DNA of 64,000 nucleotides from Escherichia coli (GTDB lineage Bacteria; Pseudomonadota; Gammaproteobacteria; Enterobacterales; Enterobacteriaceae). The notes beneath the pieces are model-generated. The model worked only from the letters and a program-made list of their open reading frames with translations, ran no database searches and was not told the origin of the DNA. Numbering within the stretch: the first letter of the stretch is position 1; each line of letters opens with the position of its first letter. Location of the stretch: the NCBI RefSeq assembly GCF_048403405.1, contig NZ_CP183129.1; one strand, written 5' to 3'. The translations under genes and the position numbers were made by a program. Shown here piece by piece: positions 58,164 through 62,982 of the stretch.

Positions 58164-59732
58164 TTAGCGTGCCGGCTGAGTAGTCGTGGAAGACTGCTCA
58201 AAGTGATAGCGACCGGTTTTCAGGCTGCTTGGGCCGAGGCGTGCAAACTTGAACATTAAGAACAATTCTGCCACCAGGAACAGGGTATACAGGCCGCAAA
58301 TCAGCACCATTGAGAAGATGAGATCGCCTGCGGTCAGTGACGAGTTCGCCACAGCTGTCGGCAGCACTTCACCGATAGCCCACGGTTGGCGGCCATATTC
58401 AGCCACGAACCAGCCCGCTTCTACAGCAATCCACGGCAGCGGAATACCATACAGCGCGGCGCGCAGCAGCCATTTTTTCTCGCCAATGCGGTTGCGGATG
58501 ACACTCCAGAAAGAGAGCGCGATGATTGCCAGCAGCAGGAAGCCACACGCCACCATGATACGGAACGCGAAGTACAGCGGCGCTACACGCGGAATGGAGT
58601 CTTTGGTTGCCTGTTGAATCTGCGCTTCAGTCGCATCAGCCACGTTTGGCGTATAGCGTTTCAGCAGCAGACCGTAACCGAGGTCTTTCTTCATGCTATT
58701 GAACTGGTCACGAACCGCCTGGTCGGTAGAACCAGAACGCAGTTGTTCGAGCAGAGAGTACGCCTTCATCCCGTTACGAATGCGTTCTTCATGCTGCACC
58801 ATCAGTTCTTTCAGGCCGATAACTGGAGTATCCACGGAACGCGTTGCAATGATGCCCAGCGCGTAAGGGATCTGGATCGCAAATTTGTTCGTCTCCTCTT
58901 CCTGATCAGGAATGCCGAACAGAGTAAAGGCAGCAGGCGCAGGTTGCGTTTCCCACTCGGCTTCAATAGCAGCCAGTTTGGTTTTCTGCACGTCGCCCAT
59001 TTCGTAACCAGATTCATCACCCAGAACAATAACAGACAGAACGGCAGCCATACCGAAGCTGGCAGCGATAGCAAAGGAGCGTTTAGCGAAGGCGAAGTCA
59101 CGACCTTTCAGCATATACCATGCGCTGATACCGAGGATGAACATCGCGCCAGTCACATAACCAGACGCTACAGTGTGAACGAATTTCACCTGAGCAACCG
59201 GGTTAAGCACCAGCTCGGAGAAGCTCACCATCTCCATACGCATAGTTTCAAAGTTGAAATCGGACGCGATTGGGTTTTGCATCCAGCCGTTCGCAACCAG
59301 AATCCACAGTGCGGACAGGTTTGAACCGAGCGCCACCAGCCAGGTGACACACATATGCTGAACTTTACCCAGACGATCCCAACCGAAGAAGAACAGACCT
59401 ACAAAGGTGGATTCGAGGAAGAAGGCCATCAGACCTTCGATTGCCAGCGGCGCACCGAAGATATCCCCTACATAGTGGGAATAGTAAGACCAGTTAGTCC
59501 CGAACTGGAACTCCATAGTCAGACCGGTAGCCACACCCAGAGCGAAGTTGATACCAAACAACTTGCCCCAGAACTTGGTCATATCTTTATAAATCTGTTT
59601 GCCGGAAAGGACGTAGACCGTTTCCATAATGGCCAGCAGGAACGCCATACCGAGCGTCAGTGGCACAAAAAGGAAGTGGTACATCGCGGTCAAGGCAAAC
59701 TGTAAGCGCGACAGTTCGACTATATCTAACAT
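58164..59732 (-). CDS. cydA: Cytochrome bd-I ubiquinol oxidase subunit I
   Basis: ORF 58164-59735; start at [12 protein letters not shown] (59732), 522 aa. Confidence 0.96.
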
Positions 59733-60017
59733 CATGACTCCTTGCTCATCGCATGAAGACTCCGAGAGTGAACCCCGTTAGAAAGGGTCACACGCATGCC
59801 CCAATACAAAATTATTTGCTCGCCTCTATCGTTGCCATTTCATCAAAAGAGGAAAAGACAATGATAAAAAAGTTACAAATATGTTAATGAATAAACCAAA
59901 TTGATCCCGTAATTATATTACGCCGCAAAATCCTTACAATAAACAGGTTTTTATTGAGCAAATTTGCATTTTTCGACAGTGATCAATTTATAGCGAAATT
60001 GTCACGATCTCACCAAT

Positions 60018-60031
60018 TTGATCTACGACAA
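60018..60031 (-). promoter_or_regulatory. FNR/CRP-family half-consensus box (TTGATCTACGACAA) in the cydAB control region
   Basis: Matches the TTGAT half of TTGAT-N4-ATCAA; about 285 bp upstream of cydA. Confidence 0.4.
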
Positions 60032-60069
60032 TTTATCGTGTTTTGCAGATTTTTTTCAAGAATTAAAAA

Positions 60070-60083
60070 TTGATTTATATCAA
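60070..60083 (-). promoter_or_regulatory. Perfect FNR consensus box TTGATTTATATCAA in the cydAB control region
   Basis: Exact TTGAT-N4-ATCAA; cydAB is known to be FNR/ArcA controlled with a long leader. Confidence 0.6.
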
Positions 60084-60537
60084 AACCAACCAAATATGTT
60101 AATTATGTATAAACCATAGATCATTGGTGATTTTATTGTTAATTTATTGTGAAATATTTATGCAACACAATTATTACAATGAAAAGGTATAGATAAAAAA
60201 CCAGTGTTTTATTTAACAGAACCGCCTTATCCACTTTTTATAATACCAATTGATTAGATTAGCCAATTTGTTGCTATTTTACATAACATATTTTTATCAA
60301 AGTTAATTGATTGTTGCGTTTATGAGCACCGGCCGTAAGCCCGTTATGTTATTGTTTCATTAGTAATAATCACTTAAATGTATCGATGAAACAGGTATGA
60401 CTTAGCGGGAGTGATTGTTTCTGAGTGAACAGAGACCACTTTCGCCTGATAAATGAAAAATGAGCGATTTTTGCAAGTTAGTTTTTCTATAGCCGAGTAC
60501 GCTCAGCGCCTCGCTTGATTACAATGAGGTTGCTGCT

Positions 60538-61482
60538 ATGAGTCCTGATAATATCAGTTCTGCTGTCAATCGCTTCTCAGGTTGGCCATCTAATGATCCT
60601 CTAAAAACAGATAAAGAATCAATGACATCACCCATGACTGTGCAGGTAATAAAGATGATTGCCGCCATCCTTGACCCACATCGGATAGTCGTTGGAATCG
60701 ATACACTTTATACAACGCAGCGCGAAACATTTACCTCAGAGAGTCAACAGCTCATTGAATCAGCATTGCAAACACTTCATGTGATGAATTTAAATAACCT
60801 GGAAACAAATCTCGATGAGGAAGGTCACTATCTGGCTTTTGGATATAACGTTGACACTCCTGACAGAATAACCGTTTCTGCTTATAATGAAAAAAAGCCT
60901 GGCTGCTATGGCCAATGTCTTTTAATACAGGATGACGAAACAGACTTATTTAACCTGATAAAAGTTAAAATTTTTGAAGCCAGGCATAATTATGTCGCTC
61001 AATTGATGAGCGATCCGGAATTTATGTTCAAATTTAGTTATAGCGCTCAACAAAATAGATTAGAACCTCATCTTCTGGTTCCCACTTATTTCCCTCTAAA
61101 AACAAACGAACCGGTTACGCAAGAGGATGTACTGTTACTTTATCGTTTCTTTAAAATGGATGGTGATTTTAATATATTAACATCAGATGAATACATGAGT
61201 ATCATGACACCTCTGATGAAGTGTGAGCGCAGCATCCACGACCACAACAGGTATGTGACGGGCAAAGATACCCTTCTTCTGGACTATCCTCCTTCTGGTA
61301 ACCAGATATATTTCCATATTTTTCCTGACGAATCAGCAACACTAGTCCTTTATTTTTCAAACAATGACATTGAATGTTTCGTCTTTGAAAGAGATATTCC
61401 GAGCCAGTATCGCTTTTTCAAAATGTTTACCAATCTGGCACTGGTTATTGATCAGTTAACCGATGCCAATCAAATACTTTAA
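60538..61482 (+). CDS. Hypothetical protein, 314 aa, no family recognised (AT-rich islet ORF-A)
   Basis: Intact ORF with GAGG 8 nt upstream of ATG; Ser/Thr/Pro-rich N-terminus without signal peptide; codon usage AT-skewed. Confidence 0.6.
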   Translation: MSPDNISSAVNRFSGWPSNDPLKTDKESMTSPMTVQVIKMIAAILDPHRIVVGIDTLYTTQRETFTSESQQLIESALQTLHVMNLNNLETNLDEEGHYLAFGYNVDTPDRITVSAYNEKKPGCYGQCLLIQDDETDLFNLIKVKIFEARHNYVAQLMSDPEFMFKFSYSAQQNRLEPHLLVPTYFPLKTNEPVTQEDVLLLYRFFKMDGDFNILTSDEYMSIMTPLMKCERSIHDHNRYVTGKDTLLLDYPPSGNQIYFHIFPDESATLVLYFSNNDIECFVFERDIPSQYRFFKMFTNLALVIDQLTDANQIL

Positions 61483-61562
61483 TTTTTATATATTCCCTGT
61501 GGCAAATATTGCTAAACAATGCCCGGGGATTAATTTTTATTACTCACGGAAAGATTTAAATA

Positions 61563-61985
61563 ATGATCCCATCTCAAATCTCTTTCAACACCCTTCCTGT
61601 CAATGCAACATACGCTTCAGAGACAACAGTTGACACACAAAAATTCTCTGACATCCTCTACTCAGCGGGGTGTTCCCTAAAGGATCTGGCTTATTTGAGC
61701 AGATGTCTGGCATCAATACATCCGACTATCGCCAAAAACATTTATGAAACAGAAAATCTCAGCGATCAAAAATTACTACATATTGATTGCCGTAGTACAA
61801 ATGAAATCAAGATAAATATCTTTTTTGGTCAACAACGAGAAGGATTAATTGAAATTAGTTCTGACACAGTCATTTTTTCGATACTGTCTTCATTGATTGA
61901 CTCCACCATTTCTAAATTTCAACACCAAAACCCCGTTAACGGTTCTGTAAATCCTGACCTATTGTATGAGGATTATACTGATTAA
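61563..61985 (+). CDS. Hypothetical small acidic protein, 140 aa, no family recognised (AT-rich islet ORF-B)
   Basis: Intact ORF 80 bp downstream of ORF-A, same strand; about 17 acidic versus 9 basic residues; Ser/Thr-rich N-terminus. Confidence 0.55.
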   Translation: MIPSQISFNTLPVNATYASETTVDTQKFSDILYSAGCSLKDLAYLSRCLASIHPTIAKNIYETENLSDQKLLHIDCRSTNEIKINIFFGQQREGLIEISSDTVIFSILSSLIDSTISKFQHQNPVNGSVNPDLLYEDYTD

Positions 61986-62532
61986 ATCCCTCCTGTCGCG
62001 AAAAATGGCCTGCGTTATTGCCAGACGTAATAAAACTTTTGATTAACGTTTCTCGTACTGGTAGCACCTTCATGTACTTTTCTTTTTTACGAAAAATCAA
62101 AAGAGCTAACAAAGGTCATAATTCGCATGAATCATTAATTATTTGTTATTTTCAACATTATTTTTACATTAAGCAGAGATGAATTGCAGTGAAATTCGAC
62201 TTAACTTTTATGAAATGCATTTACTCATGGCTAAAGCCACGTCACAAAAATGCAAATTAGAAGTAGATCACAAATATCTCAATACATCAAATCAAGTTAA
62301 TTTTAAAAATTTAATATTCATGACATTAGTTGACATAACACACTGAATTATAATGAGAATTTGAAAACACACTTTAAACAATCATTTCCCGAAAGACATT
62401 TTGAAAATAGATCAATTGCAACATTACGGTCAGATAAAGACACTCCTGTGATATTAAACCTGTGCCGTTATGAACGGCCATAAATACGACGTGTGTAACT
62501 TATTTTACTCTCTGTCTTACAAAGGATTACCC

Positions 62533-62982
62533 ATGAAGAAAGCAACACTTGTGATTGGCGTTATTGGCGCGGACTGCCATGCAGTAGGCAATAAAGTTCT
62601 GGACCGCGTTTTTAGCAACCATGGCTTCAGAGTCATTAATCTGGGCGTAATGGTCAGCCAGGACGAATATATTGATGCTGCCATTGAAACTGGTGCTGAC
62701 GCGATTGTCGTCTCCTCTATCTATGGGCATGGCGATATCGATTGTCTGGGCATGCGCGAACGCTGCATTGAGCGTGGGCTGGGTAACATCCTGCTCTATG
62801 TGGGCGGTAACCTGGTGGTCGGAAAACATGACTTCGCTGACGTGGAAACCAAGTTCAAAGAGATGGGATTTGATCGCGTCTTTGCCCCAAGTCATGACTT
62901 AGAAGATGTTTGTCAGCTGATGGCCCACGATATCAACCAACGTCATGACGTTGATACTCGCATTCTTGAAGAGGCAATCTGA
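62533..62982 (+). CDS. glmS: Glutamate mutase sigma (S) subunit / methylaspartate mutase S chain, B12-binding
   Basis: ORF 62470-62982; start at [21 protein letters not shown] (62533) with AAGGA upstream; DxHxxG cobalamin-binding motif (DCHAVG); strongly resembles clostridial MutS/GlmS. Symbol refers to glutamate mutase, not glucosamine-6-phosphate synthase. Confidence 0.85.

Follow-up and report, generated by a model that had tools for sequence, protein, structure and literature searches.

Two uncharacterised, co-oriented open reading frames lie between the cydAB control region and the glutamate mutase operon of this Escherichia coli chromosome, and the question they raise is whether they form a dedicated two-gene system. 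A preliminary description of the window (the whole stretch of 64,000 nt analyzed here) had read their layout as that of a secretion effector with its chaperone or a toxin with its immunity protein. ORF-A (60538-61482, plus strand, 314 aa) and ORF-B (61563-61985, plus strand, 140 aa) both start with ATG and are intact, and their position is as first described, with cydA (58164-59732, minus strand) as the left flank and glmS (62533-62982) as the right. Their G+C contents of 38.2 and 36.9%, respectively, versus 52.7% in cydA and 49.1% in glmS, also agree with the contrast noticed at the outset (roughly 35-40% against about 50% in the flanks). On balance, we lean toward the explanation that ORF-A and ORF-B are orphan genes confined to Escherichia, which would encode conditional accessory factors and would not be halves of a toxin/antidote or effector/chaperone pair.

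The 5′ region of ORF-A (60374-60537, plus strand), with which an Escherichia-specific AT-rich segment begins, includes a good Shine-Dalgarno sequence (GAGG, 60526-60529, 8 nt 5′ of the ATG), and a promoter scan found no consensus sigma-70 promoter in it. ORF-B is preceded by a weak Shine-Dalgarno sequence (GGAAAG, 61548-61553) within the 80-bp spacer between the two frames (61483-61562, plus strand), so that of the ribosome-binding sites first called plausible for both, that of ORF-A is good and that of ORF-B weak. Since this spacer holds no terminator-like hairpin, co-transcription of the two ORFs is possible. Downstream, an AT-rich non-coding tail of the segment (61986-62375, plus strand) leads to the conserved glm upstream region, which begins at about 62376, and no Rfam family matched within 59500-62700 at E ≤ 1. 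Given a GC3 of 0.34-0.36, rare codon frequencies of 7-8% (versus 0.6% in cydA) and the lack of a consensus promoter, low expression of both ORFs is plausible.

Several lines of evidence indicate that both ORFs are genuine protein genes, fast-evolving under purifying selection, namely dN/dS ratios below 1, maintenance of the frame as far as E. albertii, the failure of shuffled sequence to yield an ORF of 314 codons, and the presence of intact copies in 1134 of the 5426 complete E. coli genomes. The pair is annotated as two CDS in every genome of a spread sample of complete E. coli carriers, both as hypothetical proteins (e.g., ORF-A as WP_001310136.1 in O157). A comparison of dN/dS across homologues, proposed earlier as a check, gave 0.29-0.70 for ORF-A over all pairs and 0.34-0.45 where a pair had ≥60 substitutions (p ~1e-4 to 1e-6), and 0.07-0.40 for ORF-B (p ~1e-5 to 1e-2), with most pairwise comparisons significantly below 1 for both. 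The E. albertii and E. coli copies of ORF-A both have 314 codons and share 65% identity, the 213 substitutions between them including neither a stop nor an indel (dN/dS 0.43 on this branch, dS ~0.5, p ~1e-6), and frame and length are kept across all intact copies examined. Among 2000 shuffles of the AT-rich block, none produced an ORF reaching 314 codons and 17 produced one reaching 140. The constraint on both ORFs is weak, and they exceed the adjoining non-coding DNA of the block only slightly in conservation (86-95.5% versus 87-90% identity per 200 nt).

It seems unlikely that the ORFs have no function and are relics in slow decay or proto-genes, with frames held open mainly by phylogenetic inertia, although part of the evidence points that way: divergence is high and near that of neighboring non-coding DNA, codon usage is poor, relatives elsewhere are lacking, and inactivation has occurred repeatedly. 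Frameshifted or absent ORFs in close relatives had been named beforehand as an argument against a functional module, and the record is divided in this respect, the pair being intact in the E. coli carriers and broken in some Escherichia lineages, with a frameshift in the E. albertii type strain (inactivation is counted in E. albertii NBRC 107761), ERIC insertions disrupting both genes in Escherichia sp. MOD1-EC7003, and truncated copies in Shigella dysenteriae. Against simple decay, the significantly low dN/dS values include the E. coli-E. albertii branch, on which 314 codons of 38% G+C DNA have passed without a stop or indel, and the core of ORF-B (residues 38-114) is nearly invariant, whereas its N-terminal 24 residues and its tail (residues 115-134) are variable.

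Both proteins appear to be orphans restricted to the genus Escherichia (including Shigella) and unlike any known protein, in keeping with the first impression that neither belongs to a recognizable family. No significant match emerged from Pfam (queried with single sequences and with all members of the alignments), NCBIfam, PADLOC, PHROGs or PDB profiles (best Pfam E 0.14-0.46; PHROG E 0.056), and a Pfam scan of ORF-B found no domain at E ≤ 1, its sole match (E = 9.2) being unrelated. A word-indexed search of 5.8 billion proteins with both ORFs returned matches only in Escherichia/Shigella. When 1.84 billion proteins were searched exhaustively with an ORF-A profile, only 14 matches were obtained, which are 36-131 aa long and together tile the query; we take these to be fragments of the ORF-A protein itself. 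Homologues of ORF-B were sought by word-indexed search, tblastn and pattern scans, a weaker test than that applied to ORF-A, and two short candidate distant homologues (P0046 and P0047) were rejected as frameshift artefacts of noisy assemblies. A scan of GTDB genomes found only E. albertii, Escherichia sp. MOD1-EC7003 and two mis-binned MAG contigs. Similarly, tblastn found no relatives in 50,697 phages (both proteins) or in 72,556 plasmids (ORF-A), beyond three PLSDB records of 0.73-4.9 Mb that are larger than ordinary plasmids and are taken to be mislabelled chromosomes, and pattern scans of IMG/VR found none. Counting from fumD (ECs0757), ORF-A and ORF-B are probably ECs0766 and ECs0765 of O157:H7 Sakai. 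Literature searches with the locus tags and WP accessions of the pair returned nothing relevant (the O157 omics supplements were without the tags, possibly because of tag formatting), and no expression, localisation or interaction data for the pair were found there.

The two proteins are predicted to be soluble, acidic and cytoplasmic in type, with no recognizable domain. Neither has a transmembrane segment, a hydrophobic N-terminus (maximum KD19 of 1.25 in ORF-A and 1.52 in ORF-B) or a Sec signal, and by a crude measure, the fraction of S/T/P/N/Q in residues 2-25, their N-termini rank as the two highest among 53 proteins scored (0.50 for ORF-A and 0.54 for ORF-B versus 0.26 ± 0.10 for 52 long ORFs of the window). 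The portrayal of ORF-A as having a Ser/Thr/Pro-rich N-terminus and no signal peptide is therefore borne out. That of ORF-B as small and acidic with a Ser/Thr-rich N-terminus is accurate too, but its acidity is not distinctive, as the two proteins are equally acidic (pI 4.65 for ORF-B and 4.69 for ORF-A). A Foldseek search of AFDB50 matched only Escherichia/Shigella proteins, so that the profile and fold searches recommended at the start converged on no characterised family; the AF2 models are of low confidence (pLDDT 43 for ORF-A and 40 for ORF-B), and a known fold could thus have gone undetected. In the ORF-B model, helices span residues 25-34, 39-52, 54-61 and 101-122, and strands 70-78, 81-88 and 91-98. 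The predicted secondary structure of ORF-A holds a similar helix-helix-strand3-helix order, and the notion that ORF-A consists of two ORF-B-like modules in tandem was rejected (hhalign probabilities ≤2.4%; Smith-Waterman z of -0.75 to 1.4 versus shuffles).

These features recall the taxonomically restricted (ORFan) genes of enterobacteria, such as EHEC orphan genes (PMC4765031) and species-specific orphans of gut bacteria (PMC11293555). The likeness includes the lack of homologues outside one genus, AT-rich composition, unfavorable codon usage, rapid evolution under a constraint that is relaxed yet real, the lack of a recognizable domain and location in a variable spot; the differences are that ORF-A is long and has been kept since before the E. 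coli/E. albertii split, and that ORF-A and ORF-B stand side by side at a fixed site.

The Escherichia-specific AT-rich segment that carries the pair is ~2 kb long, from about 60374 to 62375, between the cydAB control region and the glm upstream region. Similarity to E. coli without the pair stops at ~60373 (A26 type) or ~60108 (K-12 type) and similarity to Salmonella at ~60150, while on the other side the alignment of the glmS upstream region with Salmonella, Pseudescherichia and C. koseri starts at 62376-62391. In Salmonella enterica and Pseudescherichia vulneris, cydA is followed directly by glmS, with spacers of 1216 and 847 bp, respectively, that have no similarity to ORF-A or ORF-B; C. 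koseri has mngRAB instead at this place by cydA, and the pair is absent beside its glmS. The sucD-cydA gap is hypervariable, with at least four alternative gene contents. An inverted repeat around the segment (60397-60420 and 62376-62399, 18 of 24 positions complementary) was dismissed as an element end, being expected by chance in AT-rich DNA according to a hand estimate and having a right arm that is also conserved in Salmonella.

The compositional contrast had initially been read as a sign of horizontal acquisition, and this reading survives only in part. The segment is indeed AT-rich, lineage-specific and absent from other genera, but at 37-38% G+C the pair is on a level with the local intergenic DNA of its relatives (35-37% in Salmonella and Pseudescherichia), and searches for a donor or for copies in phages and plasmids found none; a mobile-element origin was rejected, there being no relatives in phages, plasmids or IMG/VR. 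The suggested survey of presence and synteny across Escherichia placed the pair at a single chromosomal site, one place per genome and the same across Escherichia species, in roughly a fifth of the complete E. coli genomes and partly in E. albertii. Since its G+C equals that of homologous intergenic DNA and no donor was found (among 1.84 billion proteins, phages and plasmids), the family might have been born or radically remodelled in an Escherichia ancestor, within the AT-rich spacer upstream of cydA, with a specific function, for example as T3SS/ETT2 substrates (the N-termini resemble secretion signals) or in modulating anaerobic glutamate/respiratory metabolism in D/E/F-type E. coli carriers; we consider this scenario rather improbable.

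In the explanation that we favor, that of orphan genes with accessory roles, the ~2-kb AT-rich segment would have entered or arisen between the cydAB control region and the promoter/operator of the methylaspartate island, gained in an Escherichia ancestor and inherited since at that single site. Each protein would have a non-enzymatic role, as an accessory factor or by binding other proteins, and would be made only under certain conditions, which is the usual pattern for AT-rich, lineage-specific genes under H-NS-type silencing. The carriers include O157:H7 and many human clinical isolates, and if either protein acts in secretion, in cydAB/glutamate-fermentation regulation or in defence, it would constitute a genus-specific trait of medically important lineages; a defined role, if true, would also make the locus one of the few cases in which the origin of orphan genes at a fixed place in the chromosome can be dated. 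On present evidence, the pair consists of ordinary uncharacterised accessory genes, and the main practical result is negative, in that the effector/chaperone or toxin/immunity reading needs experimental backing before it is taken any further.

The methylaspartate (glutamate mutase) island of enterobacteria (glmS-glmL-glmE-mal-...-gltP-fumD-cobO-LysR; PMC4682846) adjoins the pair in the same orientation, and the cluster description in that study does not list ORF-A or ORF-B. In E. coli, neither ORF occurs without the other or without the island (1134/1134), as 1134 genomes hold a 2.9-kb query that stretches from cydA through ORF-A and ORF-B to the start of glmS and 1134 hold the pair alone. A functional link of either ORF to its partner or to the island may exist, and a further explanation, to which we assign a low probability, is that the proteins are lineage-specific modulators of a neighboring operon, either the island downstream or cydAB, which is divergent and ~800 bp away. 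Besides the perfect co-occurrence, this is favored by the pair of Escherichia sp. MOD1-EC7003, which, though disrupted, also adjoins glm, by the lack of a strong terminator between ORF-B and glmS, and by the insertion of the segment between two regulatory regions. However, tight physical linkage explains the co-occurrence equally well, no DNA-binding or sensor domain was detected in the proteins, and the island has its own LysR-type regulator. Moreover, the island, with about 50% G+C, differs in composition from the pair and is a conserved unit without it in Salmonella, Pseudescherichia and Citrobacter, and because it exists there alone, both ORFs are dispensable for it.

Conversely, E. albertii keeps ORF-A although the glm operon is absent. 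In an E. albertii-like sequence (L002, 89% nucleotide identity to the window), ORF-A is intact and ORF-B is a 31-aa remnant, and two E. albertii copies of ORF-A differ by seven synonymous and six non-synonymous changes. Because ORF-A persists under constraint where ORF-B has decayed, the two genes are not mutually dependent and do not form an obligatory pair, as judged from these genomes.

It is quite improbable that either protein, or both, is exported by type III secretion (as a LEE or ETT2 effector), with ORF-B perhaps serving as chaperone of ORF-A. As in T3SS effector and class I chaperone pairs such as Tir/CesT of the LEE, a larger ORF lies beside a small acidic one whose size and pI fit a class I chaperone (about 130-160 aa), Ser, Thr, Pro and Asn are unusually frequent at both N-termini, which have no Sec signal, and the carriers include O157:H7 and E. 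albertii, presumably LEE-positive lineages. These N-termini are weak evidence for secretion, however, as N-terminal composition by itself is a weak predictor, and many of the carriers are human, avian or environmental E. coli without an annotation as A/E pathogens. Unlike known effector/chaperone pairs, neither protein matches a CesT-type or other chaperone or effector family in Pfam; ORF-B has no NCBIfam or PDB-profile match as a class I chaperone either, and the word-indexed search, the ORF-A profile search and AFDB50 Foldseek detected no homology to a known effector family. The order in the low-confidence ORF-B model (three helices, three strands, one helix) would depart from the class I alpha-beta3-alpha-beta2-alpha order, with no beta4-beta5-alpha3. 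Furthermore, no T3SS or other secretion genes lie within ~12 kb (in a 27-kb O157 locus), the larger protein is as acidic as the smaller, and E. albertii has lost the small gene and kept the large one.

A toxin-antitoxin, toxin-immunity or anti-phage defence cassette is very improbable, since, although two co-oriented AT-rich genes in the hypervariable sucD-cydA gap resemble type II toxin-antitoxin and polymorphic toxin-immunity cassettes, the pair has no toxin, antitoxin, immunity or defence domain in PADLOC (0 matches), Pfam or NCBIfam and no recognised secretion-associated or nuclease/NTPase-type motif, is not mobile, multi-copy or spread across taxa (single copy and locus in one genus, with no phage, plasmid or IMG/VR copies), and includes a presumed toxin, ORF-A, that survives under constraint in E. 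albertii without ORF-B, which excludes ORF-A as toxin and ORF-B as antidote because a toxin would not outlive its antidote, and leaves the opposite polarity untouched. The pairing proposed in the preliminary description is accordingly not supported in either form. As a separate observation, the order of a large gene and then a small one across an 80-bp gap is not diagnostic of effector/chaperone pairs.

From their sequences, ORF-A (60538-61482, plus strand, 314 aa) and ORF-B (61563-61985, plus strand, 140 aa) are best read as two genuine, fast-evolving, genus-restricted orphan genes for soluble acidic proteins, whose products would act as conditionally expressed accessory or protein-binding factors. 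Both ORFs are intact, co-oriented and separated by 80 bp, exactly as the preliminary description placed them; the plausible ribosome-binding sites it listed hold for ORF-A, with a good Shine-Dalgarno sequence (GAGG, 8 nt upstream), but that of ORF-B is weak. The low G+C relative to the flanks was borne out (38.2% in ORF-A and 36.9% in ORF-B versus 52.7% in cydA and 49.1% in glmS). Shuffling the AT-rich block 2000 times never gave an ORF of 314 codons (0/2000), and gave one of 140 codons in 0.85% of cases. Hydropathy profiles contain neither a hydrophobic N-terminus nor a transmembrane-grade segment in either protein, in keeping with the lack of a signal peptide in ORF-A. ORF-B is small and acidic as described (pI 4.65), but ORF-A is acidic as well (pI 4.69), and acidity therefore does not mark a small partner. 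The Ser/Thr-rich N-termini were confirmed, the Ser/Thr/Pro/Asn/Gln fraction being 0.50 (ORF-A) and 0.54 (ORF-B) compared to 0.26 +/- 0.10 in 52 long ORFs of the window; this composition is the sole basis on which the proteins may be regarded as T3SS substrates, and no secretion-system genes were found near the pair at the O157 locus. ORF-A contains the predicted order of helices, three strands and a long helix in two copies and ORF-B in one; sequence comparison does not support the paralogy of modules that this recurrence might suggest.

The pairing of an effector with a chaperone, or of a toxin with an immunity protein, had been proposed from the gene layout, and the main evidence against it is an E. 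albertii-type locus (L002) that is 89% identical to the window at the nucleotide level from tolB through ORF-A. Here ORF-A is intact (65% identity), ORF-B is down to a 31-aa remnant, and the glm (glutamate mutase) operon is absent, with a 258-aa ORF resembling an outer-membrane protein in its place. Two E. albertii copies of ORF-A are 7 synonymous and 6 non-synonymous substitutions apart, pointing to continued constraint. Since a toxin would not be kept once its antidote is gone, and effectors rarely persist without their dedicated chaperones, the retention of ORF-A argues that it would function, if at all, independently of ORF-B. The two genes are not mutually dependent, and would not be halves of a toxin/antidote or effector/chaperone system. 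Moreover, toxin, immunity, defence, chaperone and effector models in Pfam, NCBIfam and PADLOC matched neither protein, in line with the earlier failure to recognize a family.

The glm island does not require ORF-A/ORF-B: it lies directly beside cydA, in the same place as in the window, in Salmonella enterica and Pseudescherichia vulneris, with spacers of 1216 and 847 bp (35-37% G+C), while mngRAB intervenes in C. koseri. On grounds of linkage, the pair may nonetheless modulate the adjacent glm or cydAB operons. The relatives' spacers align with the window only in the cydA-proximal ~400 bp and in the glmS-proximal part, about 80-30 bp, from 62376 onward, and hold nothing like ORF-A/ORF-B at the DNA or protein level; the pair thus lies in an Escherichia-specific segment of ~2 kb (about 60374-62375) between two conserved regulatory regions. 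Because the composition of this segment is that of local intergenic DNA in the relatives, and our searches detected no donor, the horizontal acquisition argued earlier is possible but undemonstrated.

By their substitution patterns, ORF-A and ORF-B are real genes under weak constraint. For ORF-A, dN/dS is 0.34-0.45 in every comparison with sufficient substitutions, and the E. albertii-type copy differs by 141 non-synonymous and 72 synonymous changes (p about 6e-6 against neutrality) with zero indels over 314 codons. ORF-B gives dN/dS values of 0.07-0.40 (p about 1e-5 to 1e-2), with substitutions concentrated in residues 1-24 and 115-134 and residues 38-114 almost invariant. Reference values are about 0-0.01 for cydA and mostly 0.03-0.16 for glmS, reaching 0.43 in pairs of merely 4-5 substitutions. 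That the two ORFs may be decaying relics is contradicted by these ratios. Damaged copies do occur: the E. albertii type strain has an inactivating 1-nt insertion, Shigella dysenteriae has truncated copies, and Escherichia sp. MOD1-EC7003 (L010) carries ERIC-element insertions, two inverted copies of ~130 nt (8345-8474 and 9084-9213 of that locus) that break up ORF-A and stand in place of the initial two thirds of ORF-B, with 0-3 mismatches to the ERIC1R and ERIC2 primer sequences. Between the window and two divergent alleles (L019/L020), the AT-rich block (60000-62400) is 86-95.5% identical across coding and non-coding parts, versus 95.5-100% in the flanking cydAB/glm genes, conservation in the ORFs being only slightly above that of the adjoining non-coding DNA. 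Between allele classes, dS is 0.16-0.26 in ORF-A/B, above cydA (0.07-0.09) and glmS (0.02); old allelic lineages, recombination import or a locally higher mutation rate are possible causes of the raised divergence.

The pair is carried by 1134 of 5426 complete E. coli genomes (likewise 1134 with a longer query reaching the glmS start), and is annotated as two CDS in 39/39 full-length matches from an evenly spaced sample of pair-carrying records. Beyond E. coli/Shigella, the only relatives found were in E. albertii and MOD1-EC7003, apart from contigs of two GTDB representative MAGs labelled Collinsella sp. (L007) and Citrobacter sp. (L008); the ORF-A on these contigs matches E. coli at 99-100% identity, and the contigs almost certainly come from E. 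coli by mis-binning. When both ORFs were run in word-indexed searches against 5.8 billion proteins, Escherichia/Shigella sequences alone were returned, and an exhaustive profile search with the ORF-A alignment (1.84 billion representative proteins) returned only matches of 36-131 aa tiling the query, taken to be pieces of the same protein. Phage, IMG/VR and plasmid searches (the last with ORF-A) found no relative; the PLSDB records with ORF-A (NZ_CP141089.1, NZ_CP134663.1 and CP088669.1; 4.9, 4.9 and 0.73 Mb) look like whole or partial chromosomes wrongly labelled plasmids. Two apparent divergent ORF-B homologues were rejected: P0047 is a product of the indel-riddled E. coli assembly GCA_002230845.1, which is 97.8% identical to the window with every gene split into short ORFs, and P0046, on a separate contig, aligns like a similar frameshift artefact. 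Thousands of genomes already list these sequences as hypothetical proteins, and our literature search found no paper mentioning them. ORF-A/ORF-B are thus a new uncharacterized family of a familiar sort, lineage-restricted ORFans, and no evidence points to the undescribed system first envisaged.

The window is E. coli chromosome, and a 2.9-kb stretch of it with the pair matches strain TUM14771 at 100% identity and O157 at 97%. In O157, tol-pal and ybgC precede ybgE-cydX-cydB-cydA (minus strand); next come ORF-A and ORF-B (both annotated "hypothetical protein"), glmS-glmL-glmE-mal-atuA-DUF4387-gltP-fumD-cobO, a LysR-type gene and sucD. The genes downstream of ORF-B make up the methylaspartate-pathway island known from O157:H7 (PMC4682846). 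E. coli genomes lacking the pair have other genes between cydA and sucD. At least four different contents occur in this hypervariable gap (window ~60110-62400 versus L002, L011, L012, L014 and L016): the glm island with ORF-A/B, a TPR-repeat protein (E. coli A26), mngRAB ahead of the glm island (C. koseri), and ORF-A with the 258-aa outer-membrane-like ORF (E. albertii type). In K-12, mngRAB is also known at this place.

Near both ends of the Escherichia-specific segment lies a 24-nt inverted repeat (60397-60420 / 62376-62399, 18/24 complementary), strikingly placed in that its right arm begins exactly where Salmonella similarity resumes; it is probably due to chance in AT-rich DNA. Additionally, a 21-nt block, TTTTGAAAATAGATCAATTGC (62399-62419, ~115-135 bp upstream of the glmS ATG), does not vary between E. 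coli, MOD1-EC7003, Salmonella, P. vulneris and C. koseri, amid poorly conserved DNA. It probably serves the glm operon as an operator or activator site, perhaps one bound by a CRP/FNR-family protein or by the LysR-type regulator of the island, and contains the dyad TTGA-N7-TCAA (T-N11-A type), whose spacing is one base longer than that of the canonical FNR site.
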